A DNA stretch of 38,987 bases, from assembly GCA_042217665.1 (NCBI GenBank), contig JBDGSH010000075.1, forward strand, positions 1 through 38,987, given 5' to 3'. Made by a program: the position numbers and the translations under genes. The DNA is from Candidatus Nanohaloarchaea archaeon. GTDB lineage: Archaea; Nanohalarchaeota; Nanosalinia; Nanosalinales; Nanosalinaceae. Under the pieces are notes generated by a model, which searched no databases, was not told the origin of the DNA, and worked only from the letters and a program-made list of their open reading frames with translations. Shown here in pieces: positions 5,674 to 37,035 of this stretch (its first letter is position 1; each line of letters opens with the position of its first letter).

Positions 5674-5684
5674 ATAATTTTTTA
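5674..5684 (+). terminator. Oligo-T run (T6 at 5678-5683) in the 20-nt gap between convergent genes
   Basis: The sequence aattttttag follows the MinD-like stop (5659-5661) directly. Archaeal termination commonly uses oligo-T tracts. The run overlaps the stop codon of the convergent minus-strand gene. Confidence 0.3.
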
Positions 5685-9597: not shown

Positions 9598-9618
9598 GCC
9601 TAAGTTTTCTAGATCGAT

Positions 9619-10704: not shown

Positions 10705-10758
10705 TCAGGTATCTCCTTGGTCTGAACTTCCTCCCCTACCTAGTTTTTGTGAAAGGGG

Positions 10759-10839: not shown

Positions 10840-10910
10840 CAAGCTCCGCCTATTTGAGAATAAGCGAAGGGGAATCTGGAGGGGGAGCCCAGAACAACAG
10901 CTTCGCAACC

Positions 10911-11990
10911 ATGGTCAAACCAAATATGAAAGAATACTTACACCGGAAAAACACTGTTAAAGCCCTCCTCGCAACCCTATCACTGCTATTTCTAATTTCA
11001 ACAGTCTCGGCTCAAGACACACAGAACAATTTACAGGTCAGTGTGAACATTTCCTCGCGGACAATCGTAGACATTCAGCCCCAGACATTTGCGTGGGGAA
11101 CCGGATCGTCAATGGTGGAACCCGGAAGCCTGGCCGGTCCACAGGAAGAGCAGAACGGATATGGTCGAATCCAGATCGAGAACCTGGGATCGGTAGACAT
11201 AACCGACGTATGGTTCAATACAACAGCACCGGATCAAAGACCTTTCGGAACAGGCTCAGCCTCAGCATACGACTCAGGCAACTTCATCGCGCTGGACAGG
11301 AACTCAACCTCTACAGACAGAAACGCCTTCGTTGAACGTAAAGAGTTCGGACTCGACCAGGTCGCAGGAAGAAACGACAAAGACATAATCTACCTAAGTA
11401 CTCCTGACGGCTGGGACTACGGCCGATTCAGAAACACTTCAAAAGAATACTTCTGGACTGTGAACGATACAGGAACAGACCTGACTTCCGCAACCTTCAG
11501 AATAGGAATCAACCATCACAACTCCACGCAGACAGGATCCACAAACCTGGACAGTGCATGTGTTGGAGGAACTACTGCAACAGGAACCGCAAACTGTAAC
11601 GGCTACACCTTGAACCAGGTTACAGATGCCAACGGAAACACCTGGGGCGTAGCCGGAATAGAAGTAGGTGTGGAAGACGCCAACACAGGTCCAAATGATG
11701 GAGGAACCGAGTACTGTGTAGCAATCAACGAATCAGCAGCAGTCTCCGATTCCACCCCGCCTACAGCCACTTTCATCAAATGGAATCCTGGCCACCCGGC
11801 TGTACAGGCCGCAGGAAGCGGATCAAGTTGTATGAACGCAGTAAACTACACGATCGGAGGAAGCGCTCCCAAAAGCAGTCTTGTTCCAGGAGACTGGACA
11901 ACGATGAACATTCGAGCCAAGATACCTTACGGCGTTGTTTCAGGATCGCTTCCGACAGGAAACCTTGTTGTTTTAGCTAACAGCAACTAA
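10911..11990 (+). CDS. Secreted protein, paralog 1 of an uncharacterised family (candidate major surface or fibre subunit)
   Basis: Sec signal KNTVKALLATLSLLFLISTVSA|QD. Motifs shared with the next gene: QVSVNISSRTIVDIQP, IQIENLGSVDITDVWFNTT, RPFGTGS..YDSGNFIALD, FVERKEFG, DGWDYGRFR, EYFWTVNDTG, FRIGINHHNSTQTGS. ATG 10926 is an alternative start. Confidence 0.7.
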   Translation: MVKPNMKEYLHRKNTVKALLATLSLLFLISTVSAQDTQNNLQVSVNISSRTIVDIQPQTFAWGTGSSMVEPGSLAGPQEEQNGYGRIQIENLGSVDITDVWFNTTAPDQRPFGTGSASAYDSGNFIALDRNSTSTDRNAFVERKEFGLDQVAGRNDKDIIYLSTPDGWDYGRFRNTSKEYFWTVNDTGTDLTSATFRIGINHHNSTQTGSTNLDSACVGGTTATGTANCNGYTLNQVTDANGNTWGVAGIEVGVEDANTGPNDGGTEYCVAINESAAVSDSTPPTATFIKWNPGHPAVQAAGSGSSCMNAVNYTIGGSAPKSSLVPGDWTTMNIRAKIPYGVVSGSLPTGNLVVLANSN

Positions 11991-12051
11991 CACTTTTACT
12001 CGTCTCAAAACCGCGAAAAACAAAAACCAGATTAAAAGGAGGTGAACAAAA

Positions 12052-13011
12052 ATCAAAAACACAAGCAAAGCACTCTTAGTCTTTCTAGCAGCAGCTCTCT
12101 TCACAGTTACAGCTGCAGCCCAGTCACCAGCAACAGACGACTCACAGGTAACAGTGAACGTGTCACAGCGGACAGCGATCGACATTTCTCCATCAACACT
12201 CGCTTACCAAGGAGTAGCACCTGGAGAAATGCTTAGCGAAGCGACAGCCAGTGAAGAAAACTTCACACACGTCGAGCTGGAGAACATAGGGTCAACCAAC
12301 ATTACCCAGGTATGGATGAACGCTTCAGTACCTCAAAGTAATCCGTTCGGTACAGGAGTTACAGGAAACTACGACGCAGGAAACTTCATCCAGATCAAAC
12401 CCGAGTCCGATCCGGAGCTACAGGTCAATAGCAACGGCGACTTCACGTTCGTAAACAGAAAGGAGTTCAACGAGACCGACGAACTCAGCTACATCTTCAC
12501 ACCTAGCGACTCCTGGGACTACGGAAGATTCAGACTCGGTGAACAGGAAGTCTTCTGGGCAATCAACACTTCAGGAAGCAGCTGTCAGACAGGTTCAGGA
12601 CAGTTCAGAGTAGGTGTCAACCCACACAACCAGACAGCGACAGGATCCAACGACTTCAGAACAGTAAACGGAGAGTACACAAGTTACAGCCCTGTATCAG
12701 TGCCGGGCGGAGTAGTAGCTCAGGATGTGTGGATCAACACGTCAAGCACCACGAGACAGTACGACGTCAAGCTTGAATGTGGCGGAGCTTCAACCACAGC
12801 GATCAGGAGTAGGTACAATCCTGGTGTCATCAACGACACAGCGGAAAGCGCAGTCACGCCTATAGTGGCTCAATCAGGAAACATAGCTTCAGAAGCAGCT
12901 ATGCAGCCTGGTGAGAACTTCGCTGTGAACGTTTCAGTTAACGTTCCGCAGGGAGTTGCTCGGGGTCAAGTGGATCAAGGTACTTTGAGAGTGCTGGCTT
13001 CCACACAGTAG
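12052..13011 (+). CDS. Secreted protein, paralog 2 of the same family; the start is probably non-canonical (AUC) or masked by a frameshift
   Basis: The track ORF begins at GTG 12154. The same frame stays open back to the TGA at 12043-12045 and encodes a clear signal peptide (KIKNTSKALLVFLAAALFTVTAAA|QS) that aligns with paralog 1. There is no ATG, GTG or TTG in 12046-12153. GGAGGTGA at 12038-12045 lies 6 nt upstream of ATC 12052. Confidence 0.6.
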   Translation: MKNTSKALLVFLAAALFTVTAAAQSPATDDSQVTVNVSQRTAIDISPSTLAYQGVAPGEMLSEATASEENFTHVELENIGSTNITQVWMNASVPQSNPFGTGVTGNYDAGNFIQIKPESDPELQVNSNGDFTFVNRKEFNETDELSYIFTPSDSWDYGRFRLGEQEVFWAINTSGSSCQTGSGQFRVGVNPHNQTATGSNDFRTVNGEYTSYSPVSVPGGVVAQDVWINTSSTTRQYDVKLECGGASTTAIRSRYNPGVINDTAESAVTPIVAQSGNIASEAAMQPGENFAVNVSVNVPQGVARGQVDQGTLRVLASTQ

Positions 13012-13050
13012 GGGAAACTTCCCTCTTTTTCTCTTCTCTTTCTATTCTAG
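13012..13050 (+). terminator. T-rich tract after paralog 2 (candidate archaeal oligo-T terminator)
   Basis: The sequence is ggggaaacttccctctttttctcttctctttctattc, with a T5 run at 13026-13030. It is pyrimidine-rich and followed by a new TATA box. Confidence 0.35.
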
Positions 13051-13055
13051 GATTC

Positions 13056-13064
13056 TTTTTTATT
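13056..13064 (+). promoter_or_regulatory. TATA-like box for the MoxR operon
   Basis: TTTTTTATT is centred 28 nt upstream of ATG 13088 and only 19 nt upstream of ATG 13079. Confidence 0.4.
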
Positions 13065-13087
13065 GAACCGTTTCGTATATGTTCTGT

Positions 13088-14095
13088 ATGAAGGATTTCT
13101 CCCAGCTTTCACGTGAGGAACTGGATGAGCAAACGGATTTCTACGGTGAGAAGCTTCAGAAGCTGGGTGAGGAGATTCAGAAAACTATTATCGGTCAGGA
13201 GGAAGCGGTTGACTCTGTTTTAACGTGTCTGGTGGCTGACGGTAACGCGTTGCTTGAAGGAGTTCCGGGTCTCGGGAAAAGCTTGTTGGTTGAGACTTTA
13301 GGTAGGATCGTTGAGGACTCCGGCTTCAACCGTATACAGTTCACGCCTGATCTTTTGCCTGCGGATATTGTAGGTATTGAGGCGTACGATGAGGATAAAG
13401 GGTTTTATACTGAGAAAGGTCCGATCTTTTCCAACTTTATCCTGGCGGACGAGATTAACAGGGCGCCGCCGAAAGTTCAATCCGCGATGCTTGAAGCTAT
13501 GCAGGAGAACAAGGTGACTATCGGCGACGAGGACTATCAGCTGCCGAAGCCGTTCTTTGTGTTGGCGACCCAGAACCCTGTGGAGCAGGAGGGTACGTAC
13601 CCGCTTCCGGAGGCTCAGGTTGACAGGTTTCTATTCAAGATCGTGATGGATTATCCGAAGCGGAAGAACGAGTTTGAGATTATTGATGTGAACGCTGAGC
13701 GGATGGATATGAATGAGTACGGCCTCAACCAGGTTATAACCAGTGAGGAGCTTATCGAGGCTCAGGAACTGTCGAAAGAGATTATTGTCAGCGACGAGAT
13801 CAAGAAGTATATCCTTGACCTCGTTGAGGCTACCAGAAACCCTGAGGAGTTCGACCTGGAGTATGGAGACTTGATTGATTACGGTGGTTCTCCGAGAGCT
13901 TCTATTAACCTGGCGCTGGCGGCTCGAGCCAATGCTTTGATCAACAAACGGTTTTTTGTGAAGCCTGACGATGTAAGAGAAGTCGTGCATGAAGTCTTCC
14001 GCCACAGAATCATCCTTAACTACGAGGGCCAGGCCCGTGATATTTCAAAAGAGGAGATTATCGACGATATCGTTGATCGTGTGCCGGTGAGATAA
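13088..14095 (+). CDS. moxR: MoxR-family AAA+ ATPase
   Basis: Walker A LLEGVPGLGKSLL, Walker B FILADEINRAPPKVQSAMLEAMQE, and VLATQNPVEQEGTYPLPEAQVDRF (sensor 1 / Arg finger region). The C-terminal lid has GGSPRASINL. The track start is ATG 13079; 13088 fits the TATA spacing better. Confidence 0.9.
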   Translation: MKDFSQLSREELDEQTDFYGEKLQKLGEEIQKTIIGQEEAVDSVLTCLVADGNALLEGVPGLGKSLLVETLGRIVEDSGFNRIQFTPDLLPADIVGIEAYDEDKGFYTEKGPIFSNFILADEINRAPPKVQSAMLEAMQENKVTIGDEDYQLPKPFFVLATQNPVEQEGTYPLPEAQVDRFLFKIVMDYPKRKNEFEIIDVNAERMDMNEYGLNQVITSEELIEAQELSKEIIVSDEIKKYILDLVEATRNPEEFDLEYGDLIDYGGSPRASINLALAARANALINKRFFVKPDDVREVVHEVFRHRIILNYEGQARDISKEEIIDDIVDRVPVR

Positions 14096-15914: not shown

Positions 15915-15917
15915 ACC

Positions 15918-21214: not shown

Positions 21215-21221
21215 TTTGTAT

Positions 21222-27200: not shown

Positions 27201-29807
27201 GTGGTCTCCGGTTTTCCCGGCTCCTCCTGGCTTTATAAAGGTTCTGAGGAAGTAGGCGCTGTATGCTCCGTCTTTTATTCTTGTTGACTGGTTGATGAGG
27301 CCTGTTGAATGGTAGAATGTGTAGTTGGTTTCTGCTATCGTGTTTTCGCAGTTTACCAGGGTTTTTACCGGTCCTTGTTCTGTTATGGTGCATGTGGTTG
27401 CGGGAGCTGCTGGTTGTTCGGATTCGCGGTTGAATCCTTGTATTACTTCGCCTGTTTCGGAGCCGTTTACCAGTGTTCCCAATGGGGCGCCTTTTATGGG
27501 TTCTGGCTGGCTGTTGTCTAGGTCTGGTTCTATTCCCCAGACCTGTGTTCCGTTGTAGTAGACGGTGATGTTTTTCCATTGGATGAAGCTGTCGGTTGGG
27601 TCGTATGACCAGTCGTTGGTCTGGTTGTATGAGTTCCAGTCGGAGTCGTGTATCCTGTGCTGGAGTTCTTCGTAGTTACCTGGACTGACAGAGGCTGAGG
27701 GCAGGTCGACTTCCAGGTATGTGTTTCCGTTTGAGTCGTTGGTGAAGGATGTGGTTCCGCAGCTTCCTATGGTTGAGGAGTCGCATTCGAAGACATTGTT
27801 TTTGTTGCCGTCCTCTGTGAACCAGTACCTGTAACTGACCTTGCCGTAGTCTACTGTTTTGGTTCCTTGGTTGTGTATCCGGACGTAAGATTTCAGGGTG
27901 CCTGTGCTTTCAGGGTCATAGGTCCCGCTGTGGTATGTTACTGACAGGTTTACAGGGTTTTCTCTCTCTTTTCCGTATGGCTTGATCAGGTTTTCTCCGT
28001 TTCTGAGTTTGAGTGAGTCGATGGCTCCTATGGACCTGTTTAGGTCCAGGCTGTAGACCGTGTTGTTGACGTGTATGTTGTCTGTGGAGGTTTTTACGTC
28101 GAGTTGTGTGGTGTAGCTTGGAGGGTTTATTGAGGTGTTGGTGCTGAAGTAGATGTGGTAGGTTCTGTTGGTGTCTGCGGCGGTTTCTCTGTTCATTATC
28201 CATGTCAGGGTTCCTGCTGCGTTGGTTGCCGTGTCGTAGTTTGAAGCTTTTTTGAACCGGAAGGGTACTTCTTCGAGCGAGCTGCCTTCTGCTTCGATTA
28301 CTCTGATTGAGTCAGTGTTTAAATCGGTGTTTGAGGCTCCTGCGTTTTGGAGTGCTTCTGTAAAGTTTACCTGTGTTTTTACCACGGCTTCTTTTCGTTT
28401 ATAGTTGCCTGTGGAGACGTTTATTTTTTTCCTGTAGCCCCAGTCTCTGTTCCACCAGTTTGATTCTGTTTGAAGCCTTACAGATCCTGATGCGGCTGTT
28501 GTGTTCTGGAAGCTGCCCGGCGTCCAGTCTGTGGTGTCGTCCAGGTTTATCTGTCGGGTTACGTTGCCTGAGACGTTCATCCATAGCGCTGCTGTGTCGC
28601 AGGTTGATTCGAAGCACTGCGGTGTGAAGTTGAATTTTACCGGTTTCAGGTGTCTTGAGCCGGTTTCAGGTTTTTTTAGCTGTACTTCTGGCGGTTTCTC
28701 TTTGTAGATTTTTAGTGAGTTTATTATAGGGGTGAAAGTAGCTAGGGAGGATTCCAAAACTGTTTTGAGGGTTATGTCGCTTCCGTCAGGTTTTATGTTG
28801 ACCGAGTAGTTTTTGGTTGTGGCTCCAGAGTCGAGTTGTATGTTCTGTGTGTTTCCTGCGTTGTTTGAAAGTTTTAGGTAGGCGTCTGAGGAGCCGTTAA
28901 GGTTTTCAGAGCTGACCTGGATTTTTTGGACGGTTTGATGCGGTTCCAGTGTTTCTGTAAGTGTGTGTTGTGCCTGGTACGGTGTTCCGTGGATGAACTG
29001 TTGTTTTATCTGGCTCTGGGTTAGTGCTGTGCTGTATACTTTTGGTTCGTCTATTTTTCCTATGTATTGGTCTCCTCCGCCCGGGTTTTCTCCTATGCTT
29101 AGACCTGAGGTTCCGAATCCTGAGATGGATCCTGATGTGGTGGTTTGAGCTGCGGTTTTTCCGTTTATGTAGAGTTTTTGTGCGGAGCCGTCGTATGTTC
29201 CTGTTACAAGCGACCATTCTCCTTCTGGTAGGGTGGCGCCGGGGGTGTTTGAGCTCGTGCCTCCCGTGTTCAGGTGGAATCTTATGTCCGTGCTGCTTCC
29301 TTGTACGTACTGGAAGCCGTAGGCTTGTCCTGAGTACATGATCGGGTGGACGTTGTAGTTATCCTGTGGTCCTTCCGGTTTCATCCATGCTGAAAGGGTT
29401 ATCTGGCTGGTCGGTTCCAGTGAGGTGGAGGCCGGTATAAGGACGTTGTCTCTCCAGTCGCCGTCGAATCTGAAGGAGTTGGTGGAGAAGACGCCCTGGA
29501 CTCCTGTGGCTGTGGGCTGGTTTCCTGAGGTTGTGGAGCCGTTGTTTCCGTTTCCTGAGTAGTCTACTACTGTTCCTCCGTTGCCTGAAACCGGTCGGTC
29601 GAAACGCCAGTATCCTGCCAGATTGTCGGTTCTTGTACCGTTTCTGTAGCCTATCCGCAGGTTTCCGCTGTTTGTACCTGTTTCTGCGGTTGTCACATTG
29701 AATGTTCCCTGGTTCCAGTCTGTTGCTGTATTAACGACTGTTACTGCTGTGGCTGCGGCAATTAAAATTCCTACAGCGGCTATTATCAGGGTTTTACTGT
29801 GTTTCAT
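21222..29807 (-). CDS. Giant secreted surface protein (2861 aa): LamG x2, DUF2341-like, CBM3-like, Ig-like repeat arrays, four-Cys C-terminal module
   Basis: A single uninterrupted ORF. N-terminal signal/anchor MKHSKTLIIAAVGILIAAATAVTVV. Domain motifs are listed as sub-features. N-X-S/T sequons are very dense. The ATG lies inside the last codons of the upstream giant gene (14-nt overlap). Confidence 0.9.
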   Translation of the reverse strand: MKHSKTLIIAAVGILIAAATAVTVVNTATDWNQGTFNVTTAETGTNSGNLRIGYRNGTRTDNLAGYWRFDRPVSGNGGTVVDYSGNGNNGSTTSGNQPTATGVQGVFSTNSFRFDGDWRDNVLIPASTSLEPTSQITLSAWMKPEGPQDNYNVHPIMYSGQAYGFQYVQGSSTDIRFHLNTGGTSSNTPGATLPEGEWSLVTGTYDGSAQKLYINGKTAAQTTTSGSISGFGTSGLSIGENPGGGDQYIGKIDEPKVYSTALTQSQIKQQFIHGTPYQAQHTLTETLEPHQTVQKIQVSSENLNGSSDAYLKLSNNAGNTQNIQLDSGATTKNYSVNIKPDGSDITLKTVLESSLATFTPIINSLKIYKEKPPEVQLKKPETGSRHLKPVKFNFTPQCFESTCDTAALWMNVSGNVTRQINLDDTTDWTPGSFQNTTAASGSVRLQTESNWWNRDWGYRKKINVSTGNYKRKEAVVKTQVNFTEALQNAGASNTDLNTDSIRVIEAEGSSLEEVPFRFKKASNYDTATNAAGTLTWIMNRETAADTNRTYHIYFSTNTSINPPSYTTQLDVKTSTDNIHVNNTVYSLDLNRSIGAIDSLKLRNGENLIKPYGKERENPVNLSVTYHSGTYDPESTGTLKSYVRIHNQGTKTVDYGKVSYRYWFTEDGNKNNVFECDSSTIGSCGTTSFTNDSNGNTYLEVDLPSASVSPGNYEELQHRIHDSDWNSYNQTNDWSYDPTDSFIQWKNITVYYNGTQVWGIEPDLDNSQPEPIKGAPLGTLVNGSETGEVIQGFNRESEQPAAPATTCTITEQGPVKTLVNCENTIAETNYTFYHSTGLINQSTRIKDGAYSAYFLRTFIKPGGAGKTGDHVGDWIGTRGGPYLWKKLVNYTSGGEQVLDDGLIEEIGYIGFYNNASKPVFAAAWNATKADAIRFTAPSTVGMEIGYNGTTPKITSQSFNIKYHLQSSQNPEIANVTDAARRIRNPVKTFKAGVEQFQQQYLTEGRYEKTINLGETVYWNKTNTEITEPDKTDLNISYAENSSGTWNYADKITQLPKSKALKIRADFKGNRTETPLLKQLNITYKDPESNWRRVKQTTNIQNNTENSINLDFTDINLPSTLKWNIKVTDHDGVSSFAPDNRTIKVFETDRPPKWRNQQQSKDLVAAAGSIELSAEGFDQLNLTKAVLATNETGSWQNHTPRYGSPRKIGSAGTWNRTNFTWQNKSVNGETVAWKIYFCDSKNQCNATKVKTFKAANEDEAPPPIYFAAPEKRTNHPTYLNVSSTDAIEKWFFQVDGRSKYRFSPNTSIPVAQEGKHNVTVYAEDIVGAKNRSTREFYWEVTQPFQNTTSPQNRLYHSQTIWRNLTVGDQFLKTVKYTLNGDTETLYQKKPAQKPWPSLQAYYTLDTDKNYTQEAVQNLTAQPNGNVTRKTDGILNSSAYSFDGANDYINLGKNVSEKINESSFTWTAWINTENTGTVIGANQDDYSNRLILYTLNNSATDNHIYVNDANAGGLEGSLSIPDNTWTHVAITLNASSNTLRAYVNGREDTGGDFPATTTTEIQPRDIISIGQEYDSSGTSDFFNGKIDEVQFYSSALTQTEIQQLSEKTSGNMKTYWEAFTSDRNVSNLQLETDVALNAGEVNVTVLSDPDNDLKTEETSNTIQLDGSGSYAVNGLSTDSRRFKLRINASSPSISRSPVIKELRLKQSNIIYIGNALDWDAGNRTDMEHEEIGNRKAANLKLGYSLQPERRNIYRSREKIQAAEGNNTLKIFSEDLHGNTNTSTVKFQVDTQPPQLTLDTPGNATQVERGTVLNYTVTDLNLDTVKYSHNGNANTTDFIGSYDINTSAWTLGTNTVKLYANDTLGETTSKTYRFDIVDDKPPLITLDRPENNTAVRSNTTLNFTVKDPELDYVSYSINGNQNSTDFIGSYDINLSHSQEEPIEVQIYANDTQGNSNTKKYSFIVDETKPRLNLTKPENKTYTTNNIPINYTVDEPNLNKTFFSTKNYKNITITENTTISVGQGDNHLTLYAEDEAGNLDSETEYFFVDSIGPQITIQSPENRTYQTNDIQAKVALDEKTQACRYSLDNGENVSMTKQTNTSFTTQLHNIEYRQHTIKFSCQDRYGNWNSKTRKFTAVTPAEKYSTYWTTPICTEGRSPCRINETFIISKDNIGTNEPNSPNTVDSASDGTSGTYNSAESIEAINITDLNASTFSQNHTVEVSVKAHCWETTPSDDTVNIIYTETPENPNWNVASSQTCPAGGFQTFTTRFQLTGTGNTTVRGLIEYNGGSTTVEQTSGYGDQDDVVIPLDNQPPKINNLKPANKSYIGQGENITFAVNDPENHFDTLKYSVDSGTNQTQTSPFKINTTNWTPGTHTVKIYANDTAGNLNTTTLEYYIDANPPNWNNLTATRNSSETDRIYTGGKINLSANWTDQNTLGTAELATNQTGTFQNSSLAPPQNLEGSQHVSKFTASIGDNQNQTLGWKIHANDSYGNTNTTTTQTLEIWEKANITITAPTGEISGAQATTRCSVNKTLDNDPVKNYNVEFRLKNSTQTFYLGQNQTDKTGEAQLTWNTDSYQKGNYTASCSITANTTRQIQPEKTEANTSIKLLTKGKLNVTLQNPAADTKVAQNKTFKANATVKCLESDCGTANTYLRYNRTGTTPETLVPETGNPLHTVNTNKKTCSLNQGENCTVQWKVNASGAEHSKHVIDVKANSTNAKKNHTVNRKITIDVLLLLNTNYSAIDFPQGYPGETVSAPKNSEGYTVSLDEDSNAGSLWMNMSKLSLVGGTDQPNQIIEPENTSWSYRSTCSYSGSNKFTGSFEQIDQNFQAGETVNQCFWQEIPFGHYNGTYTGTLTIKVNTTN
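21225..21983 (-). other. C-terminal module shared with the 2413-aa protein (four conserved Cys plus terminal beta-sandwich)
   Basis: In the 2861-aa protein: FKANATVKCLESDCGTANTYLRYNRTG..ETLVPE.GNPLH...KKTCSLNQGENCTVQWKVNASG.EHSKHVIDVKANS...NRKITID. In the 2413-aa protein: FTANATIQCREGVCGETNATIRYNETG..DTLIPEGSGTPFH...LKTCGALTSENCTKTWQVNATADLGTEHLIDVNTSS...DRKITVN. Confidence 0.7.
23412..24449 (-). repeat. Array of four tandem ~85-90-aa Ig-like repeats (Cys-free type), aa ~1787-2132
   Basis: Each unit begins with PP(Q/L)(L/I)T(L/I)(D/Q)xPxN and continues as ..LNYTV.D.NLD.V.YS.NG..N.T.F.GSYDIN......V.(L/I)YANDT.G(E/N). For example, PPQLTLDTPGNATQVERGTVLNYTVTDLNLDTVKYSHNGNANTTDFIGSYDIN is followed by PPLITLDRPENNTAVRSNTTLNFTVKDPELDYVSYSINGNQNSTDFIGSYDIN. 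Additional isolated copies lie at aa ~1262-1340 and ~2306-2395. Confidence 0.75.
25005..25619 (-). other. LamG / concanavalin-A-like lectin domain 2 (aa ~1397-1601)
   Basis: QAYYTLD...AYSFDGANDYINLG...FTWTAWINTE...TWTHVAITLNASSNTLRAYVNGRE...FFNGKIDEVQFYSSALTQTEIQQL. Confidence 0.8.
27525..27956 (-). other. CBM3-like carbohydrate-binding module (aa ~618-761)
   Basis: NLSVTYHSG...YVRIHNQGTKTVDYGKVSYRYWFTEDGNKNNVFECD...TYLEVDL...VSPGNYEELQHRIHDSDWNSYNQTNDWSYDPTDSFIQWKNITVYYNGTQVWGIEP aligns block by block with the clostridial scaffoldin CBM3a as I remember it: NLKVEFYNS...[35 protein letters not shown]...TYLEISF...LEPGAHVQIQGRFAKNDWSNYTQSNDYSF...FVEWDQVTAYLNGVLVWGKEP. Confidence 0.8.
28140..28463 (-). 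other. DUF2341-like domain (aa ~449-556)
   Basis: SNWWNRDWGYRKKINVS...DSIRVIEAEGSSLEEVPFRF...TLTWIM...RTYHIYFS. This matches the remembered W..W.yR..i.i ... iR..d..g..l.ye ... iY.YY pattern. Confidence 0.6.
28992..29624 (-). other. LamG / concanavalin-A-like lectin domain 1 (aa ~62-272)
   Basis: Matches the Laminin_G_3 pattern: LAGYWRFD...DYSGNGNNG...FRFDG...ITLSAWMKPEG...EWSLVTGTYDGSAQKLYINGK...YIGKIDEPKVYSTALTQSQIKQ. Confidence 0.75.
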
Positions 29808-32800
29808 TGGCTTTGAAGTAGAGTTTTCCTTGGTAGTTTGCGGATTTTAGGCCTTCGGGGATGTCGATCCAGTAGTATGTGGTTACGTTGGTTCCTGAGG
29901 GAATGTTTGATGCGAGCCGGCTGTAACTGTTTAGAAGTGTGTTTTCCTGGTTTAAGCTGTTTTGTTTGGCGTAGCTGATGTTTTGTGCGGGGATTGTGTA
30001 GTTGCCCCAGCCGCCGGTTGTGAGGTTGGTGCCTCTTATGTAGAGCCGGTCTACTGTGACGCTGTTCTCCGGTACTGTGATGTTGTAGAGGGATTGGTTG
30101 TTTCCTTTTGCGGACTTGTTTTGCTGGCCGGGTGCCAAGGTGCCGAAGCTTACCTTATTGAACCCTAGGTCGATCATCATGGCCTGGTTGACGGTTATTT
30201 TTCTGTCCGGCGAGTCTGATGGCTTGGCCCGAGTGGAGGAGGTGTTTACATCGATCAGGTGTTCTGTTCCCAGGTCTGCGGTGGCGTTGACCTGCCAGGT
30301 CTTGGTACAGTTTTCGGATGTGAGCGCGCCGCAAGTCTTTAAATTGGTTTCGTTGAGGTGGAACGGTGTTCCTGAGCCTTCAGGTATCAGTGTGTCGGCT
30401 TCTCCGGTTTCGTTGTATCTTATAGTGGCGTTTGTTTCTCCGCAGACCCCTTCCCGGCATTGAATGGTTGCGTTGGCGGTGAAGACCTCTCCTTTTGGAA
30501 CCACGGTGTTTTCCGGCGGTTCGTTTATCTTGATATCTATGAAACCGGTTTTTGAGATGTTTAGTTTATGTTGGTCGGTGGAGCCTGAGTTCTGTGAGCT
30601 GTCTTCGACTCTGAACTTTAGATCCAGTTGCTGTTTTATGTTGACTGTCGTATTTACTATGTAGCGGGCTGTCATTGTTGAACCGGTTGTTAGTTCGCCG
30701 CCTAGGCTTGTGTTCCATGTAATGTTTTTGTTTTGGAGCGTTCCTCCTTCTCTGATTATTCCTGAGATGTTGTACCAGATTTTTTCTACGTTCCAGGTCT
30801 TGTTGAGTCCTGAGTGTTTTAGAATGTCTTCTGATTGGATCTGCCAGGCTGTGTCGCCGTCGTTTCTGATTTGGAACTCTAACCTGTATTCTGCATTTTC
30901 TTTCTGTTGGCGGATGTTGTAGGTTTTGTTGAGTCCGGAGGCTATGAGTGTTCCTCCTGTCTCCTGTTTTTGCTGGGAGAGATCGGTGACGTTGTAGATT
31001 TCTATATCGGTGATGTTGGGTACCGGTGTTCCTTCTGAGAGGCCGTATGCATCGAATTTTGTGACGTTGAAGGTGAAGTGTGTTGAGTTTTCGCGGTGTG
31101 GGTAGGCTGAGGTCTTGTTTTTCTGCCAGTTGGAGCATTTTCTGGTCGTGTAGTTCCAGTCCGTGCAGTGTAAAATAATGTTAGGGCTTATTCCCATTTT
31201 TGGCAGCTTGAGCTGCGCTTTTCCGAAGTTTAGACCTGTCTCATTGAGTGCGTAAACTGTTTCGATGGTTTCAACGTTTTCCAGGTTTTTTGCGTTGTAG
31301 TTTTGAACTAGCTGTTGTTGGATGTTTGTTGTTTGCTGTGTTGAGAAATTGTAGAGTGTGAAGGCTGCTTTCTTGCTTCCTACCTGGGCTTCCGTGGTGA
31401 TACTGTAGTTTCTGTTCTGTGGGAGCTGTATGCTTTTCTGTTGGCTGATTTTGTAGTTGTAGATTGTTTTTCCGTTGGCTTTGATTGTTACGTTGCTGTC
31501 TTTGAGCGTTTCTCCTGTTTCCTGTGTCAGGTTTACTTTTAGATCGTTGCCTTTTACGACTTCGAATTCTCCGGTTTTTGTTACGTTGGTGTTGGCTGAG
31601 GAGTCTTTGACCCACACTCTCCACGCCACTGTTGTTCCTTCCGAGATTGATTTGTTTTTCCAGTTGAAGCTGATGTTCAGGGGTTCTGTGGCGTCTAGGT
31701 TTTTGGGAGAGCTGTAGCTTGTCTTGTTTTGCCAGGAGCCGGTTTCGTTGGTGGCTAACGTTGCTTCTTTTAGTCTTACGTTGTCTTCTGCTTCAAGCTG
31801 TAGTTCTGCGCCTTTTTGTTGAAGTACGTAGGTTTTTCCGTTCTGTGTATATCCGGAGGCTTTTGGAACGGTATCTGTGTTGGTTATTATTGGCGGTTGG
31901 GTGTCTTCTGTGATTTTGAATGTGTCGTGGCTGGTTGAGGATTTGAAACGGGGAGAGGAGGCTACTGAGACAGTTGAGTAGTTGCCTGGACTGTATTTTC
32001 TGGTGTCGAACGTTAGGTTTGTTTTTTGGGTGTCTGTGACGACGGTTTTGGTTGTTTTGAGGGTCTGTGTTTTTCCTGTTTCTGTGTTGGTGTTTTCGGG
32101 GTAGGAGACGTTTACTGCGGTCCAGAACAGGTTGACGAAGCCGTCTTCCCCGTATCCGGTTTCGTCGTAGTAGCCCTGGAGCTTGGTCTGGTCGATGTTG
32201 TTCCATGTCAGCTCCGGGTATTCGTTTGTGATGTTGATCCATGGGCTGGAGGTTTTCTGGACGTTTGAGCTGCCCTGGATATCTGTAGTGTATCCGTTGC
32301 CTGTGCTGTGGCGGAGCATGTAGTTGGCTTCCCAGCCGGCGAAGTTGGTGACAGAGTACCTGTAGCGGATCCAGGCACCTTGGATTTTACCGGTGTCGAA
32401 GTTTGAGACGAAGTTTTGGCCGTGAGCCGCTCCATCGATCGGGCTTCCTCCCTGTGAGTTCCCTATTGCGGTTGCGTTGGTGTCGTCGCGGCCTATCAAC
32501 GCGTTTAAGTCGCTGACAACTCCTGTGTCTTTGACTGCGTCTCCTGCGTAGAAGACATGGGTTTCAGGTATGTTGAGACTATAGCCGGGTTTTGCTGCGG
32601 ACGGATTATCGTAGTATGCCATGAAACGTGTGTCTTTTGTTGTTCCTTTGTTAGTATCGACCAGGAAGCTGGCCTGGCACCATGTTGCGTTGTTGCCTGA
32701 GTCTATCTGGCTTGGTACTTCTGTTGTGGAGGCGTTGACTGTTTTTACTATTCTTATTTCTCTGCATGTATCTATCTGGTTGTTTAGACCTGTTATGTTG

Positions 32801-35800
32801 ACGCGTGTGACCAGGTTTGAGGTGTTGGAGCTTTCAGGTTTGTTTATTGTGACCGGTTTTCTGTTGCGCCATTCTGTGTTCCACCAGGGCTTGGAGGTGT
32901 TGCCTTGGATCAGGCTTGTCTCTACTGATGCGTCTCTATGGTTTCCGTACTTGTCTCTGGTTCTCAACACTGTTTTAACTTTTTCTCCGTATTTGTAGCT
33001 TTCTCTGGATATATTGGTGTTTGAAACTATCTTTGTGATCTCTCTGGCTGTTACACTGTACTGGAGAGTTGTATTTTTGTTTCCAGCTGCGTCGCTGCAT
33101 TTGATATTGAAGTTGTACTGGTCTCTGGAGAGGCTTGGCGTAAAGCTCTGTGTGTTTGTTTTTAAAACTGTGTTGTCGATTTCTGTGATGCTTCCGTTGA
33201 GGTAGAGGGAGCATCTGTCGATTCCGGATGCGTCGCTTACTTCGTAGCTGATGGTTGGCTCCAGACTGACTATTGACCGGTTTTCAGGTGCTGTTACCTG
33301 GATTGAGGGCGGTGTTGTATCGTTTACCTGTAGCTGGAGCGTCTTCGATGCTGAGGTGTAGTTTCTGTTTCCGGGTATTTTCGCCTTTACTTCATAGTTT
33401 CCGGGCGTCTTTATTTCTCTGATCTGTTCTAGATGCGCTGTGCCTGAGGCTATTTCTCTGCTGTCAAGGTAAAGTTGGATGGTGCCTTGGTCAGGGACTT
33501 CTGCTTCAGCTGTTATATTGATTTTATTGTCTTCGTTCATTGAGTAGCTGGTTGAAGAGCCGTTGATCAACAGGTTGAGCTGTGCCTGTCTTTTTTCCAC
33601 CGTGTATGTTTTCCAGGAGGTCGAGTTCTGGTTGCCTTCATTGTCTTCTGCGTGCCAACGGTACCTGTACGTTCCCGCCGGCAAGTCTTGAACGCTGAAG
33701 CTGTAGGTATCTGTTAGAGAAGTTATGGAAGTGTTTTCCATGTTTCCTGTGAAGTTGGATTCGAACTTGACTGTTTCAACATTGTAATTGTCTTTCCAGG
33801 TTGCGTTGAAGCTGTATCGGCGTCCTGACCGGTATGTAACCGGGGAAACCGGTTTCTCTGATTTCTGGGTCCAGTAGGGCGGTTGAGTGTCGACTTTGAT
33901 CGTGTAGTTTTTGTCGTTGAATGCTTTGTTGCCGGAAAGATCCTGACACTGTATGTTCCACGTGTAGACTCCATCCTGAACTGTTTTCGTAAAACTGTTA
34001 GTCTGATGTGTTCGCGGCTGTTGATCGGTTTCGCTTTGTGTGAAGCTGCCGGAGAAGTTTCCGTAGAGTGAGCAGGTGTCCAGGTTTCGGTCCTGTGGCG
34101 TGTATTGGAAGTTTAGCTGGCTGGAGCTGAGTGAGGCTTCGTCTCTCGGTGTTTCCAGGCTGATCCGGGGTTTTGTGGTGTCTACTGTGAAGTTGGCGGT
34201 TGTGGAGTTGCCTGTGTTGGTTTGAGTGCTGTTGTCGGTGCATGATACGCTCCAGCTGGTTTTACCTTCCGGAACGGTTGTTTGGAACGTGTTAGGCTCC
34301 AGGTTTTGTACGTTGTTGTCGGTCTGGTTTTGTGTTCCGTTGAGACGGAGGCTGCAGCTTTGGATTCCTGTTGCGTCGCTTGGCGTATAGTTGAATTCTA
34401 CGTTTCTCTGTGAGAGGTATTTGTTGACCGGCGAGTTTAGTTCTACAAGTGGAGGGTCCTCATCGTCCGCTTGAACATCCAGGTGGTAGGTCTTTGAGGT
34501 GTTTGTGTATCCGTTGATGTCCTGGCAGCTGAAGCTCCATGTGTGGTTGCCGTCCTGAACGAGTGAGGTGAACTGGAAGGAGCTCTGACCGGTGACTTGT
34601 TTCGTGTCCCTTTTTTGACCATCTAGGTAGAGGCTGCAGGTATCTACTTTCGATATTTTGTCGGAGGCAGTGCCGTAGAAGTCTATATTGTTTGTATTGG
34701 CGTAGAAGCTTTCGTTGGGAGGTCCGTAGATCTGTACTGACGGCTTGGACAGGTCTACTCCGGTCGAGTAATTTTTTTGTGGTTTGAAAGTGTTTCCAGC
34801 AGTGTCTTCACATTGAATGTTCCAAACGTAGTTGCCTTCAGGCGCTGTCTGCTGGAAGCTGTTTTCTCCGTTAGTTACTGTTCCCTCAATCATTTCCTGT
34901 TCATAGCTTCCTGAAAAGTTGGTGTAAAGCGTGCAGCTTTGCAGATGTGGATCATTTACCGTATAGTTGAAGGTTATGGAGGTCTTTGTGAAGTAGGAGT
35001 TGTTTTCGGGCGATTGAATTGATAAATCGGGTGCTGCGTTGTCGGTGGTGTATCTGTAGGTTGGTGTGGATGTTTTTGCTCCGAATCTGTCGTATGCTGT
35101 TATTTTCCAGAAGTATTGTTGGTTTTCTTTCAGCAGCTGAGTGATTTCCTTATCCGTGTCGCTGATAGACGTGGTTTTGAAGCGTTGAGGTGTTGGAAAG
35201 CTTTTTTGCTGGTCGAAAAGTATCGTGTAGTTCTTGAAATGCGGTTCCACGGTTTCAGTCCATACAATAGTAGGTGTTACGTCCTGTGAAACTGTTTGAT
35301 TTGATGGAACCATCAATGAGAACTGTTGAGGCGGTGATTTAGTGACGTTGAAGCTTAACGCTGGATCTTCAACCCTTGTGTTGTTGTACTGGTCCGTGGC
35401 GGCGATCTGTGTGATGTTGTAGATGCCTGTCTGAAGCGTGTCGTCGAATGCCAGTCTGTAGCCGGATTCTGTTGTTTTTTCCAGTTTGAAGCTTTTTTTG
35501 GTTCCGTTCGGATATTTTACCGTGGTGTTAACGTTTTTTACAGTGTTTTCGTCGTTTACTGTTACGTTCAGCTTAACTGTTTCTGTGTGGTTGATTTCTG
35601 TAGTGTTCAGCTGCGGGTTCTGGATTTCTGGCTTTCTTCCGATGTCGAGACAGCTTCCTTCGCTGTAGTAACCGGACTCGGATGTTCCATCGGAGGCTTT
35701 GGCTCTTAGCTGGACACATTCCTGTTCTTCAAGGTTTTGAACGTTCCATGTAATGTCCCCTCCTTCGCTGTGAGATCCTGCTGAAACCCATTTTTCGCCG

Positions 35801-37035
35801 TCTATATTGAGTTTTAGCTGTGAAATGTTGATTCTATCTATGCCTCCGACGTCTCCATCAAAGTTAACCCCTTTCAGCCTTATTTTCTGGTTTTCAGCGT
35901 TTTTCCATGCGTCCAGGATGCCTGAATTGTTGATTTTTAGTTTGGAGGTTTTCTGATCGGTGCTTCTGATGTTTTCGCCGTATTTCTGTGGCAGGGAGAG
36001 GTTTCCCAGCTTCTGCCAGTCTACTCCGTTCCAGGCTTCAATCTTTATTGACGGTGGCGCGGTCTCTGTACCTGAACCTAGAGAGCTGTATTCATTGATT
36101 GTTGCATTGAGCTTTGCTTCATCGATACGTGTGTAGTCTGACTCTGTGAAGTTGTAGTAGGTGTAGCTTGTTTCTTTGTTTTCTACAGGCTGTGGTGCGT
36201 CGTATTTTACTTCCATTTCCGCCCAGTGTAGGTACACGTGGCCTTCTGCACTCCAGCTTGACTCATCGTACATAGCCTGGAGCTTTGTGTTGTTTAAACT
36301 GTTCCAGCTCAGTGAGGAGTACTCTGAGGTGATGTTAAACCATTTGGATGTTGTTAGGGGGATTGAGGTCTGTCCGTAAGGCGTTGATCCTGAGATGTCT
36401 TCGGTGTATCCGCTGCCTGTTGAGTGTCTGAATCGGTATGCTCCCTCCCAGTCCCGTATTTCTCCAACTGAGTACCTGTAACGGATTCTAACTGACTTAA
36501 TGTTTGAGCCGCTGATCGAGGAAGGTATAAATCCTGTTGCATGGGCTGCATCGACCTGTGCTGCGTTTCCGTTATCGTTTCCTGTATCTGCTTTGGTTGA
36601 GTCGTCTTTTCCTAGCATTCCCTGAAGATTTACTGCGTTGCCCTGGTCTAGAACTGCTTCTCTGGCGTGGAAGGATTCTGTTACCTCTCTCTCGTTTAAA
36701 TGAACTGTTTTGGATATTTCTGTGTTGTTGGTGTATGTAGAGTTTTTTTCCAGCGATGTTTCCAGGTGGTATGTTATTGGATCGTTTTCCGGGTCTGTTG
36801 CTCCGGATGCTTCTAACGTAACGTTATTTGAAACTGTTTTTTGGCAGATACCGTTGTCGCAGTCGATGTTAGTTGGTATGCTTGGCGGGGATCCTGCTGC
36901 AATTGTTAGTAGGGTTGTTGAGACAGCTATAATCAGGAAAGCGGTGAGACGGGAGGCTTTAGGCGGATTTGCCTGGTTTATCTGGTTTTGCTTTTGTCTC
37001 TTTTTTTCCGTCATCTTTTTTGTTCGACCTCTCAC
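29794..37035 (-). CDS. Giant secreted surface protein (2413 aa): duplicated novel module, FN3/Ig-like domains, Cys-pair Ig-like repeat array, DUF2341-like, shared C-terminal module
   Basis: A single uninterrupted ORF. The basic N-terminus is followed by anchor/signal LTAFLIIAVSTTLLTIAAGS. The track start is GTG 37035, with GGAG 6 nt upstream; ATG 37014 is an alternative. Domain motifs are listed as sub-features. Confidence 0.9.
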   Translation of the reverse strand: MRGRTKKMTEKKRQKQNQINQANPPKASRLTAFLIIAVSTTLLTIAAGSPPSIPTNIDCDNGICQKTVSNNVTLEASGATDPENDPITYHLETSLEKNSTYTNNTEISKTVHLNEREVTESFHAREAVLDQGNAVNLQGMLGKDDSTKADTGNDNGNAAQVDAAHATGFIPSSISGSNIKSVRIRYRYSVGEIRDWEGAYRFRHSTGSGYTEDISGSTPYGQTSIPLTTSKWFNITSEYSSLSWNSLNNTKLQAMYDESSWSAEGHVYLHWAEMEVKYDAPQPVENKETSYTYYNFTESDYTRIDEAKLNATINEYSSLGSGTETAPPSIKIEAWNGVDWQKLGNLSLPQKYGENIRSTDQKTSKLKINNSGILDAWKNAENQKIRLKGVNFDGDVGGIDRINISQLKLNIDGEKWVSAGSHSEGGDITWNVQNLEEQECVQLRAKASDGTSESGYYSEGSCLDIGRKPEIQNPQLNTTEINHTETVKLNVTVNDENTVKNVNTTVKYPNGTKKSFKLEKTTESGYRLAFDDTLQTGIYNITQIAATDQYNNTRVEDPALSFNVTKSPPQQFSLMVPSNQTVSQDVTPTIVWTETVEPHFKNYTILFDQQKSFPTPQRFKTTSISDTDKEITQLLKENQQYFWKITAYDRFGAKTSTPTYRYTTDNAAPDLSIQSPENNSYFTKTSITFNYTVNDPHLQSCTLYTNFSGSYEQEMIEGTVTNGENSFQQTAPEGNYVWNIQCEDTAGNTFKPQKNYSTGVDLSKPSVQIYGPPNESFYANTNNIDFYGTASDKISKVDTCSLYLDGQKRDTKQVTGQSSFQFTSLVQDGNHTWSFSCQDINGYTNTSKTYHLDVQADDEDPPLVELNSPVNKYLSQRNVEFNYTPSDATGIQSCSLRLNGTQNQTDNNVQNLEPNTFQTTVPEGKTSWSVSCTDNSTQTNTGNSTTANFTVDTTKPRISLETPRDEASLSSSQLNFQYTPQDRNLDTCSLYGNFSGSFTQSETDQQPRTHQTNSFTKTVQDGVYTWNIQCQDLSGNKAFNDKNYTIKVDTQPPYWTQKSEKPVSPVTYRSGRRYSFNATWKDNYNVETVKFESNFTGNMENTSITSLTDTYSFSVQDLPAGTYRYRWHAEDNEGNQNSTSWKTYTVEKRQAQLNLLINGSSTSYSMNEDNKINITAEAEVPDQGTIQLYLDSREIASGTAHLEQIREIKTPGNYEVKAKIPGNRNYTSASKTLQLQVNDTTPPSIQVTAPENRSIVSLEPTISYEVSDASGIDRCSLYLNGSITEIDNTVLKTNTQSFTPSLSRDQYNFNIKCSDAAGNKNTTLQYSVTAREITKIVSNTNISRESYKYGEKVKTVLRTRDKYGNHRDASVETSLIQGNTSKPWWNTEWRNRKPVTINKPESSNTSNLVTRVNITGLNNQIDTCREIRIVKTVNASTTEVPSQIDSGNNATWCQASFLVDTNKGTTKDTRFMAYYDNPSAAKPGYSLNIPETHVFYAGDAVKDTGVVSDLNALIGRDDTNATAIGNSQGGSPIDGAAHGQNFVSNFDTGKIQGAWIRYRYSVTNFAGWEANYMLRHSTGNGYTTDIQGSSNVQKTSSPWINITNEYPELTWNNIDQTKLQGYYDETGYGEDGFVNLFWTAVNVSYPENTNTETGKTQTLKTTKTVVTDTQKTNLTFDTRKYSPGNYSTVSVASSPRFKSSTSHDTFKITEDTQPPIITNTDTVPKASGYTQNGKTYVLQQKGAELQLEAEDNVRLKEATLATNETGSWQNKTSYSSPKNLDATEPLNISFNWKNKSISEGTTVAWRVWVKDSSANTNVTKTGEFEVVKGNDLKVNLTQETGETLKDSNVTIKANGKTIYNYKISQQKSIQLPQNRNYSITTEAQVGSKKAAFTLYNFSTQQTTNIQQQLVQNYNAKNLENVETIETVYALNETGLNFGKAQLKLPKMGISPNIILHCTDWNYTTRKCSNWQKNKTSAYPHRENSTHFTFNVTKFDAYGLSEGTPVPNITDIEIYNVTDLSQQKQETGGTLIASGLNKTYNIRQQKENAEYRLEFQIRNDGDTAWQIQSEDILKHSGLNKTWNVEKIWYNISGIIREGGTLQNKNITWNTSLGGELTTGSTMTARYIVNTTVNIKQQLDLKFRVEDSSQNSGSTDQHKLNISKTGFIDIKINEPPENTVVPKGEVFTANATIQCREGVCGETNATIRYNETGEADTLIPEGSGTPFHLNETNLKTCGALTSENCTKTWQVNATADLGTEHLIDVNTSSTRAKPSDSPDRKITVNQAMMIDLGFNKVSFGTLAPGQQNKSAKGNNQSLYNITVPENSVTVDRLYIRGTNLTTGGWGNYTIPAQNISYAKQNSLNQENTLLNSYSRLASNIPSGTNVTTYYWIDIPEGLKSANYQGKLYFKANETQ
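29797..30549 (-). other. C-terminal module shared with the 2861-aa protein
   Basis: See the alignment given for 21225-21983. The four Cys and the RYN, W(Q/K)VNA and H(L/V)IDV blocks are conserved. Both proteins end in a Y-G-(K/T)-L-x-(F/I)-K-(A/V)-N beta strand. Confidence 0.7.
32098..32556 (-). other. Unrecognised ~155-aa module, copy 2 (aa ~1494-1646)
   Basis: ...LNALIGRDDTNATAIGN...IDGAAHGQNF...IQGAWIRYRYSVTNFAGWEANYMLRHSTGNGYTTDIQGS...TSSPWINITNEYPELTWNNIDQTKLQGYYDET...GFVNLFWTAVNVSY. Checked by translating 32310-32380 directly. Confidence 0.6.
32596..32892 (-). other. DUF2341-like domain (aa ~1382-1480)
   Basis: KPWWNTEWRNRKPVTINKPE...LVTRVNITGL...CREIRIVKTVNASTTEVPSQID...WCQASFLVDT...DTRFMAYYDNPSA. 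Confidence 0.6.
33880..35037 (-). repeat. Array of four tandem ~95-aa Ig-like repeats, each with a conserved Cys pair (aa ~667-1052); a fifth copy lies at aa ~1241-1330 (33046-33315)
   Basis: Each unit reads (K/A)P.(L/V/I)S(I/L)..P.N......(I/V/L).F.YT..D...(Q/D).C(T/S)L(Y/R).N.....Q........N.F......(D/E)G...W.(I/V).C.D..GN. Examples of the Cys pairs: SCTLY...WNIQCEDTAGN, TCSLYLDG...WSFSCQDINGY, SCSLRLNG...WSVSCTDNS, TCSLYGNF...WNIQCQDLSGN, RCSLYLNG...FNIKCSDAAGN. Confidence 0.75.
36199..36672 (-). other. Unrecognised ~155-aa module, copy 1 (aa ~122-279)
   Basis: ...LQGMLGKDDSTKA..GN...VDAAHATGF...IKSVRIRYRYSVGEIRDWEGAYRFRHSTGSGYTEDISGS...TSKWFNITSEYSSLSWNSLNNTKLQAMYDES...GHVYLHWAEMEVKY. Confidence 0.6.

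Follow-up and report, generated by a model that had tools for sequence, protein, structure and literature searches.

A conserved cell-surface locus of nanohaloarchaea and other DPANN archaea with a possible WxL-like display architecture

The gene clusters of the WxL/Csc system in Lactobacillales and Bacillales encode a small module-only protein, a large protein with the module at its C-terminus, and a membrane-anchored partner with two immunoglobulin (Ig)-like domains (PMC10599100). This partner, WxLIP (DUF916, DUF3324 and a transmembrane helix), carries a hairpin predicted to insert into the WxL domain (PMC10599100). In cultured nanohaloarchaea, LamG/PKD proteins have been described as strain-specific host-recognition factors (PMC10266531, PMC7443923). 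The attachment of DPANN archaea to their hosts is a central open question, for which isolated strain-specific adhesins have so far been pointed to. Here we analyze a 38,987-nucleotide (nt) contig of a Candidatus Nanohaloarchaea archaeon (the window), which belongs to a host-attached lineage (Nanohaloarchaeota) and in which an initial annotation had outlined an island of 15 proteins at 5682-37035. We give a probability of roughly 50% to the reading that this is a cell-surface display and attachment locus, non-covalent and analogous to WxL/Csc, that is conserved in many DPANN archaea.

Coordinates and domain content of the encoded proteins are collected in Table 1. Four membrane-anchored proteins of the first minus-strand unit are called A, B, C and D, the two secreted paralogues on the plus strand F1 and F2 (family F), and the proteins of 2413 and 2861 amino acids (aa) the giants. 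A metagenome scan with an A profile confirmed 168 relatives in brine, sediment, hydrothermal and freshwater samples, and the presence of the other families was counted in the 30 retrieved A-anchored loci of at least 9 kb. B was found in 28 of these loci, C in 25, D and F in 24 each, and a MinD/ParA-like ATPase in 23. The terminal module of the giants was present in 14, on open reading frames (ORFs) of ~200 to >2251 aa, MoxR in three, and DUF58 and VWA in two each. By these counts the conserved heart of the locus is a six-family core of A, B, C, D, MinD/ParA and F, and not the MoxR-DUF58-VWA set. The core lineages have diverged to protein identities of only 21-36% and to locus GC contents of 37-62%.

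Four other nanohaloarchaeal contigs (L001, L081, L082 and L088) are collinear with the window at protein identities of 30-72%. The shared order runs from a PPDK-like gene through MinD, D-C-B-A, two F genes, MoxR-DUF58-VWA, the acidic protein and the HExxH protein to the 838-aa and 286-aa proteins. Where contigs are long enough, it continues into the giants, a small gene for a protein with two transmembrane helices and a DUF7343 regulator. The homologues are syntenic rather than scattered, and the island is real. Beyond this arrangement, F travels with A, B, C, D and MinD in several gene orders (L083-L086 and L090), and L090 was reached from a search with the giants' module alone, yet holds F, A, B, C, MinD and D. 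One further locus, L087, is rearranged and retains only A, three F copies and 838- and 286-like genes. Named F homologues come from Nanohaloarchaea and Aenigmatarchaeota, with 0 to 4 F copies per locus.

The MinD gene lies outside the range first described and adjoins D in every locus with the core, and D orthologues occur in all core loci. Elsewhere the two genes are usually co-directional, with a 4-nt overlap in L090 and 1-17 nt between them in L083-L086; in the window they are convergent across a 20-nt gap. The cytoplasmic tail of D is rich in RGG, and at the C-terminus (5682-5760) it has a C2H2 zinc finger of the classical kind (CGECGESF...HKQNSH), kept in the D-family alignment consensus and matching Sal-like zinc fingers. 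A eukaryote-type zinc finger on the inner side of a surface protein is unusual. A gene of ~426 aa upstream of the VWA gene in L085 (1973-3259), and probably also in L084, likewise starts with a C2H2 finger.

The universally linked ATPase is this MinD/ParA protein and not MoxR. A single integrated adhesion apparatus built around its own assembly ATPase had been proposed in the initial annotation; the conserved, syntenic surface locus is upheld by our data, and the ATPase-centered construction is not, as the cassette lies with the core in just 2-3 of the 30 metagenomic loci and piecemeal in other DPANN lineages. MoxR as the engine of the system was a tempting idea and is corrected here. No database record matches the window's MoxR exactly; its closest relative (70% identity) is on a contig of a Candidatus Nanohaloarchaea metagenome-assembled genome (L001), and all other matches are bacterial at ~45%; in the loci of these bacterial relatives a DUF58 gene follows directly downstream and no surface genes were detected. 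MoxR adjoins the core in nanohaloarchaeal loci and L086 only. In other DPANN lineages, D has as its neighbor a lone VWA gene (L084/L085) or a lone MoxR gene (L086), and L083 has no part of the cassette. Unrelated neighbors were thus found for the MoxR part of the locus and not for its surface-protein part. Since the MoxR set is rare and piecemeal outside nanohaloarchaea and Bat-like in bacteria, the cassette is not the organizing center; the piecemeal recurrence of its parts hints at a functional link.

MoxR-DUF58-VWA is a known Bat-like cassette that was recruited to the locus in one lineage. It shares with Bat-type MoxR(MRP)-DUF58-VWA operons a translationally coupled AAA_3-type MoxR, a DUF58 protein and a BatA-type transmembrane VWA protein. 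It differs in having one VWA gene only, and in lying inside a surface-protein locus ahead of nanohaloarchaea-specific acidic repeat and HExxH proteins. No equivalents of BatB, the tetratricopeptide-repeat protein BatC, BatD or BatE were found; the downstream genes encode the acidic repeat and HExxH proteins, neither with a Pfam match. The HExxH motif itself is present and kept in four orthologues. The VWA domain is probably extracellular, because it carries seven N-glycosylation sequons as compared with 0-2 in cytoplasmic proteins, and it could bind surface proteins through its metal ion-dependent adhesion site (MIDAS).

Nearly half of the 30 A-anchored loci carry the module in which both giants end. 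About 240 C-terminal residues are common to the two giants of the window and the giant of L001. An exhaustive HMMER search with this module, which has no Pfam match, returned 331 representative clusters (193 at E<=1e-10) in proteins of 210-7373 aa, and all 127 of 127 near-full-length modules end no more than 12 aa from the C-terminus. The module comprises two subdomains. The first is Cys-containing and Ig-like and can be repeated: 152 proteins carry 267 copies, with as many as 12 in a single protein. The second, covering the last ~130 aa, is single-copy in 134/134 proteins and terminal in 133/134. The signal peptides of the adhesins next to the core look cleavable, and these proteins have no membrane anchor. 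Many module carriers likewise have a typical cleavable-type signal peptide and no other anchor, and true signal-peptide-plus-module proteins exist (e.g., P0112 and P0185). The candidate module-only protein P0090 (292 aa) was rejected as the remnant of a degraded giant gene; short matches were therefore checked, and many are fragments. In L088 (9553-10879) only two pieces of the giant gene are left, one of 88 aa and a C-terminal one of 292 aa that lacks a signal peptide, through either a large deletion or pseudogenization or an assembly collapse, which marks the adhesin slot as unstable.

Module-bearing giants lie next to the core or to an F array in the window, L001, L085, L086 and L090. Giants homologous to the 2413-aa protein adjoin F arrays in L084 and L085; the one in L084 runs off its contig before the C-terminus. 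In the window, L001, L086, L088 and L091, a gene of the 286-aa family lies downstream of those bearing the module, and L087 has one beside an 838-like gene. Orthologues of the 838-aa protein are present in L001, L081, L082, L088 and L087. A profile alignment of the 286-aa family with the first domain of A (hhalign probability 49%, E 1.8e-4, 151 columns) marks the 286-aa protein as possibly an A-like partner. Over the giants (21000-37000) the plus strand has an AT skew of about -0.45 and a GC skew of about +0.22, a bias that follows from the A-rich coding strand of these Thr/Asn/Ser-rich proteins.

The two F proteins, initially described as paralogous, do share 32% identity (E 1e-37). F1 has an alternative TTG start at 10854. 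Behind a GGAGGTGA Shine-Dalgarno sequence, F2 has as its sole candidate start an ATC at 12052 in frame with the signal peptide (region 12038-12154), and no ATG, GTG or TTG; the longest ORF with a canonical start begins at 12154, within the mature protein, and so lacks the signal peptide. The ATC is a rare start codon or else an ATG misread in sequencing. The family has no Pfam, NCBIfam or PDB sequence match and its members are annotated only as hypothetical. An AlphaFold2 (AF2) model of F, predicted with a local distance difference test score (pLDDT) of 86.6 and a template-modelling score (pTM) of 0.82, is all-beta. No significant structural neighbor was found for it in the PDB and no match to WxL chains in Foldseek.

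A hidden Markov model (HMM) of the giants' C-terminal region was searched against 180 proteins from all loci, ~95 of them non-F. Besides the giants it matched F-family proteins only (~35 at E<0.05, best 2.6e-5), and none of the ~95 non-F proteins scored. The register of these matches is constant, with the terminal subdomain starting at the N-terminus of mature F and ending at the C-terminus of F. A profile of 129 module sequences gave two collinear local matches to the F profile, one N-terminal (E 6.7e-4, probability 27%) and one C-terminal that reaches the last residue of both families (E 8e-4, probability 24%); with three sequences only, the comparison was not significant (probability 3%). 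Homology between F and the terminal subdomain is probable, though unproven, and the subdomain looks like an F domain lacking the central insertion of ~170 residues that F carries.

The AF2 model of A (pLDDT 79) shows two beta-sandwich domains besides a signal helix and three transmembrane helices. Its best Foldseek TM-score is to the Enterococcus faecium WxLIP chain 9i25_C, bound to a long WxL protein (0.41/0.54, E 2e-9), followed by the chaperone-usher chaperones CsuC, CfaA and CupB2 (TM-scores 0.25-0.41) and then by RbmA and ASH/SPD-2 domains. A belongs to no Pfam or NCBIfam family and has no PDB sequence match; profile matches to ETV6 fusion constructs among the PDB sequences were spurious. 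B gives a weak ASH/choice-of-anchor-D signal, and its L083 orthologue weak Cep192_D4/CFAP65 Ig matches. The D profile matches only zinc fingers among PDB sequences. Profile-profile comparisons among A, B, C, D and F are weak (F-C 57%, C-D 28%, others <10%), and we do not claim homology of these families beyond shared CARDB-like motifs.

Taken together, these observations suggest links between the three units beyond adjacency, because the giants' terminal domain is probably related to F, and because giants, 286/838 partners and core recur together in distant lineages. Nanohaloarchaea have no peptidoglycan. Four secreted proteins of the island (F1, F2 and the two giants) are anchorless and six Ig-like proteins (A, B, C, D, 286 and 838) are membrane-anchored; as the cell has no wall, protein-protein contacts must hold the former in place. 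In the mechanism we propose, F proteins and giants would be exported by the Sec pathway, and held on the cell because the F-like terminal domain would dock to tandem-Ig ectodomains, both that of A and those of A-like proteins (the 286-aa protein, for example). A likely mode of docking would be beta-strand augmentation, as proposed for WxLIP-WxL and as found in pilus chaperone-subunit complexes. D, C and B would form a membrane scaffold, and MinD might act on the cytoplasmic tail of D, placing the assembly in the membrane, for instance where the cell touches its host. Binding specificity would lie in the exchangeable N-terminal LamG, CBM3 and Ig-like parts and change when these are swapped. In nanohaloarchaea the Bat-like set, the acidic protein and the HExxH protein would probably aid maturation or turnover and stand outside the universal machine.

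The likeness to WxL/Csc would lie in the combination of a small module protein, large adhesins ending in the module and a two-Ig membrane partner, and in the WxLIP match of the A model. The loci differ in that the archaeal one has extra conserved members (B, C, D and MinD) and an A with three transmembrane helices instead of one. Because the archaeal host has no peptidoglycan, the module cannot be a peptidoglycan binder, and the analogy is at most one of architecture. It is a possible but more tentative proposition that DPANN archaea of hypersaline, freshwater and hydrothermal habitats share one non-covalent display machine, in which a MinD-positioned tandem-Ig platform captures the docking domain and mounts interchangeable giant adhesins for host attachment, and that this machine converged on, and is independent of, Firmicutes WxL/Csc. 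If true, the terminal docking domain (the 331 clusters) would be a sequence signature for the adhesin repertoire of any DPANN genome, A-D, MinD and F would be a handful of conserved proteins open to testing in those few systems that can be cultivated, and the locus would represent a possible new anchoring mode for a wall-less archaeal cell, besides transmembrane helices and archaeosortase lipid anchors.

Several results weigh against the WxL-like display reading. No WxL, DUF916 or DUF3324 signal was detected with Pfam in A, F1, F2, the giants or the short module proteins. The WxL-style small partner in the window would be F, whose relation to the module (E about 7e-4 twice) has hhalign probabilities under the usual confidence thresholds, and the best PDB match of the F model is a TasA fiber and not a WxL domain. 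The likeness of A to WxLIP could be generic, since A has 575 tandem-Ig Foldseek matches and the TM-score to WxLIP is just 0.41/0.54. Many short "module-only" database entries are gene fragments. The long N-terminal hydrophobic segments of the giants might be uncleaved anchors, in which case the module would sit at the distal tip, away from the cell. Lastly, taxon names were at hand for only a few of the loci.

By sequence, no protein of the locus belongs to any characterized surface system, among them the WxL/Csc, TasA/tafi, chaperone-usher, type IV pilus, SPEARE and known S-layer families. The giants are not of the SPEARE type, because they have neither a C-terminal transmembrane helix nor a cytoplasmic VirB4/TraG-like ATPase; no ATPase domain of any kind was found in them, and both end in the beta-rich module. 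A type IV pilus or archaellum, suggested by a Peptidase_A24-like gene at 1331-2293, was rejected, as the window has no PilB/PilC-type genes. As in the operons of Ca. Nanohalobium, Nanohalococcus and Nanohalovita, large secreted LamG/Ig-domain proteins are encoded here in Nanohaloarchaeota operons; the shared C-terminal module and the linkage to A-D, MinD and F are not in those reports (PMC10266531, PMC7443923). The view that no system of this gene content had been described agrees, for the core, the module and their linkage, with a limited literature search that found no description, and does not hold for LamG/PKD surface-protein operons, which are not new in nanohaloarchaea (PMC10266531, PMC7443923).

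The same genes could instead encode an S-layer, with F proteins as the lattice glycoproteins, A-D as stalks or anchors (as SlaB is for SlaA) and the giants inserted through their F-like domain. This alternative overlaps with the display reading and turns F into a housekeeping two-dimensional lattice. The F proteins are secreted, anchorless and sequon-rich, their genes have a strong Shine-Dalgarno sequence before them and a T-rich, terminator-like tract after them, nearly all small DPANN genomes, across many habitats, have the core, and a regular S-layer-like surface has been seen on Ca. Nanohalobium (PMC7443923). At ~300 aa, however, F is small for an archaeal S-layer protein, its copy number varies between loci, and in cultured nanohaloarchaea the S-layer annotation falls on other genes (PMC10266531). 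Searches of Pfam, NCBIfam and PDB sequences gave no match of A, B, C or F to an S-layer family and only generic beta-sandwich domains for D, and none of the secreted proteins matched another characterized envelope family; such matches had been named in advance as grounds against the proposed adhesion apparatus. We regard a lattice role as unlikely, albeit the alternative to which we give most weight.

A fiber built by donor-strand exchange shares with the locus small secreted beta-sandwich subunits with paralogues and, in A, a PapD-like tandem-Ig fold. F would then polymerize in the manner of TasA, bundling pili, Sulfolobus threads or tafi, A would be a membrane-tethered PapD-like chaperone, and the giants, as adhesins with a C-terminal subunit-like domain that plugs into the fiber, would parallel FimH at the tip. 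The best PDB match of the F model is indeed the TasA fiber 8aur_A, A matches the three chaperones named above, and a locus with several F paralogues could encode a major subunit along with minor ones. The taf locus, too, has a three-transmembrane-helix protein with a subunit-like ectodomain and a membrane helix-turn-helix (HTH) regulator (PMC11821415). Yet the TasA match is not significant (E 0.028, probability 0.54, TM-score 0.22/0.31, root-mean-square deviation 13.5 A), as is true of F matches to any fiber subunit, and no self-complementing or donor strand came to light. Pfam detected no S26-type signal peptidase domain in the island or flanking proteins, where a dedicated SipW/TafD-type enzyme would be expected, and no usher-like protein in the island of an organism that has no outer membrane. 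MinD and D have no counterpart in these systems, and archaeal threads and bundling pili seemingly need no such large membrane set (PMC9715654, PMC11821415). We consider a fiber of this kind improbable. Less probable still is that there is no integrated machine, and that genomic inertia in small genomes keeps mutually independent envelope genes side by side with a Bat-like housekeeping operon and a MinD of cell division. Every functional link in our proposal is inferred, MoxR, DUF58 and VWA are missing from most core loci, and in the bacterial MoxR loci a DUF58 gene follows directly and no surface genes were detected. Against this, the core stays together through repeated rearrangement and across the sequence and GC divergence given above, MinD overlaps or closely abuts D outside the window, and the core turned up again in the search begun from the giants' module.

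Table 1 Features of the locus in the window and the evidence for each.
Feature	Positions	Strand	Properties and matches
MinD/ParA-like ATPase, 259 aa	4882..5661	+	Pfam AAA_31/ParA/CbiA; NCBIfam minD_arch 4e-50
Core D, 886 aa	5682..8342	-	Signal peptide, CarboxypepD_reg/NPCBM_assoc-type beta-sandwich domains, one transmembrane helix, cytoplasmic tail
Core C, 273 aa	8342..9163	-	Signal peptide, beta-rich ectodomain, C-terminal transmembrane helix
Core B, 151 aa	9142..9597	-	N-terminal transmembrane anchor and one Ig-like domain
Core A, 361 aa	9619..10704	-	Signal peptide, two tandem Ig-like domains, three C-terminal transmembrane helices
F1, 359 aa from ATG	10911..11990	+	Secreted, anchorless, nine N-glycosylation sequons
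F2, second paralogue	12052..13011	+	Signal peptide encoded only from ATC start at 12052
MoxR-type AAA+ ATPase	13079..14095	+	Pfam AAA_3 (2e-58) and AAA_lid_2
DUF58 protein, coupled to MoxR	14095..14976	+	Pfam DUF58 7e-43
BatA-like VWA membrane protein, three transmembrane helices	14973..15914	+	VWA_2 3e-17, BatA N-terminal domain 2e-4
Acidic cytoplasmic protein, 28% Asp+Glu (D+E), internal duplication	15953..17314	+	Nanohaloarchaea only
Membrane protein with four transmembrane helices and HExxH, putative zincin	17325..17840	+	Nanohaloarchaea only; no Pfam match
838-aa surface protein	17837..20353	-	Signal peptide, 33 sequons, PEPEPK linker, NPCBM_assoc-like domains, two C-terminal transmembrane helices
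286-aa membrane-anchored Ig-like protein	20354..21214	-	Directly downstream of giants
2861-aa giant	21222..29807	-	Signal peptide, two LamG_3, CBM_3, PKD/Big domains (Pfam Laminin_G_3 2e-48, CBM_3 2e-10, PKD/Big_7), 123 sequons; C-terminal module at 21225-21950, terminal subdomain ~21225-21617
2413-aa giant	29794..37035	-	Glucodextran_B/Big_7/Big_13 Ig-like domains; C-terminal module at 29797-30519, terminal subdomain ~29797-30189
Small protein, ~143 aa, two transmembrane helices	37130..37560	-	Immediately upstream of giants
DUF7343 membrane-associated winged-helix regulator	38065..38961	+	Pfam 6e-19; divergent from giant operon

The ORF map reproduced all coordinates and junctions of the initial annotation, with gaps and overlaps recomputed, and Pfam bore out its MoxR, DUF58, VWA, LamG, CBM3 and Ig-like domain calls. 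D and C overlap by 1 nt and C and B by 22 nt; MoxR and DUF58 share 1 nt (TAATG), and DUF58 and VWA overlap by 4 nt (GTGA). In the giant unit, the 2413- and 2861-aa genes overlap by 14 nt, the 2861- and 286-aa genes are separated by 7 nt, and the 286- and 838-aa genes abut with a gap of 0 nt; the HExxH and 838-aa genes are convergent with a 4-nt overlap. A hydropathy scan likewise agreed that almost every island protein has an N-terminal signal or anchor (12 of 15), the exceptions being MoxR, DUF58 and the acidic protein. Predicted extracellular proteins contain 4-123 N-glycosylation sequons, except A with two, and cytoplasmic proteins 0-2. No tRNAs or other RNA genes were found in the window.

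Two features of the layout as first drawn need revision. The internal map of the island is sound and its range too narrow, as MinD, the small two-helix gene and probably the DUF7343 regulator are conserved parts as well. The junctions of the three tightly coupled units hold, and the plus-strand unit may not be one transcript: between F2 and MoxR lies a T-rich tract (13012-13078, CCCTCTTTTTCTCTTCTCTTTCTATTC...TTTTTTATTG) with the look of an oligo-T terminator of archaea and, after it, a promoter-like element rich in A/T. Its presence suggests that F1-F2 and MoxR-DUF58-VWA are separate transcripts and that the plus-strand "operon" is more than one transcription unit.

The small two-helix protein precedes giants or module genes in the window, L088 and L091. 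Its 282-aa ORF call (37130-37978) is too long, because the 138/139-aa orthologues in L088 and L091 align to the C-terminal half only; the likely start is the GTG at 37560. The DUF7343 protein, whose gene has the same relative position in L088, is a candidate locus regulator and probably a conserved part of the locus.

The remaining genes of the window lie on the MinD side of the island. At the window edge, 31-1338 (plus strand) encodes a 435-aa, coiled-coil-like protein with 31% D+E and no family match. The Peptidase_A24 gene at 1331-2293 (minus strand), 3 kb from the island, encodes a 320-aa polytopic membrane protein with a prepilin peptidase domain and a long acidic insertion. The PPDK-like protein (2292-4379, plus strand, 695 aa) contains PPDK_N and DUF2582; its orthologues in L081 and L082 are ~840 aa long with PEP-utilizers and PEP-utilizers_C domains, neither of which was detected in the window copy, which may be truncated or divergent. 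A 135-aa ORF antisense to the start of the MinD gene (4800-5207, minus strand) is 66% conserved in L001 and is almost certainly not a gene, because its conservation mirrors that of MinD.

Small HTH genes stand ahead of the giants in L085, L086 and L090. In non-nanohaloarchaeal lineages, genes for winged-helix HTH proteins of 67-85 aa lie inside the locus, directly upstream of the giant in L085 (14080-14319) and L090 (9795-9998), within the F array in L086 (11074-11313) and upstream of the F array in L087 (9655-9912). At the far end of the locus in nanohaloarchaea, the membrane-bound DUF7343 winged-helix gene takes their place. Small PqqD-like genes recur in L087 and L090.

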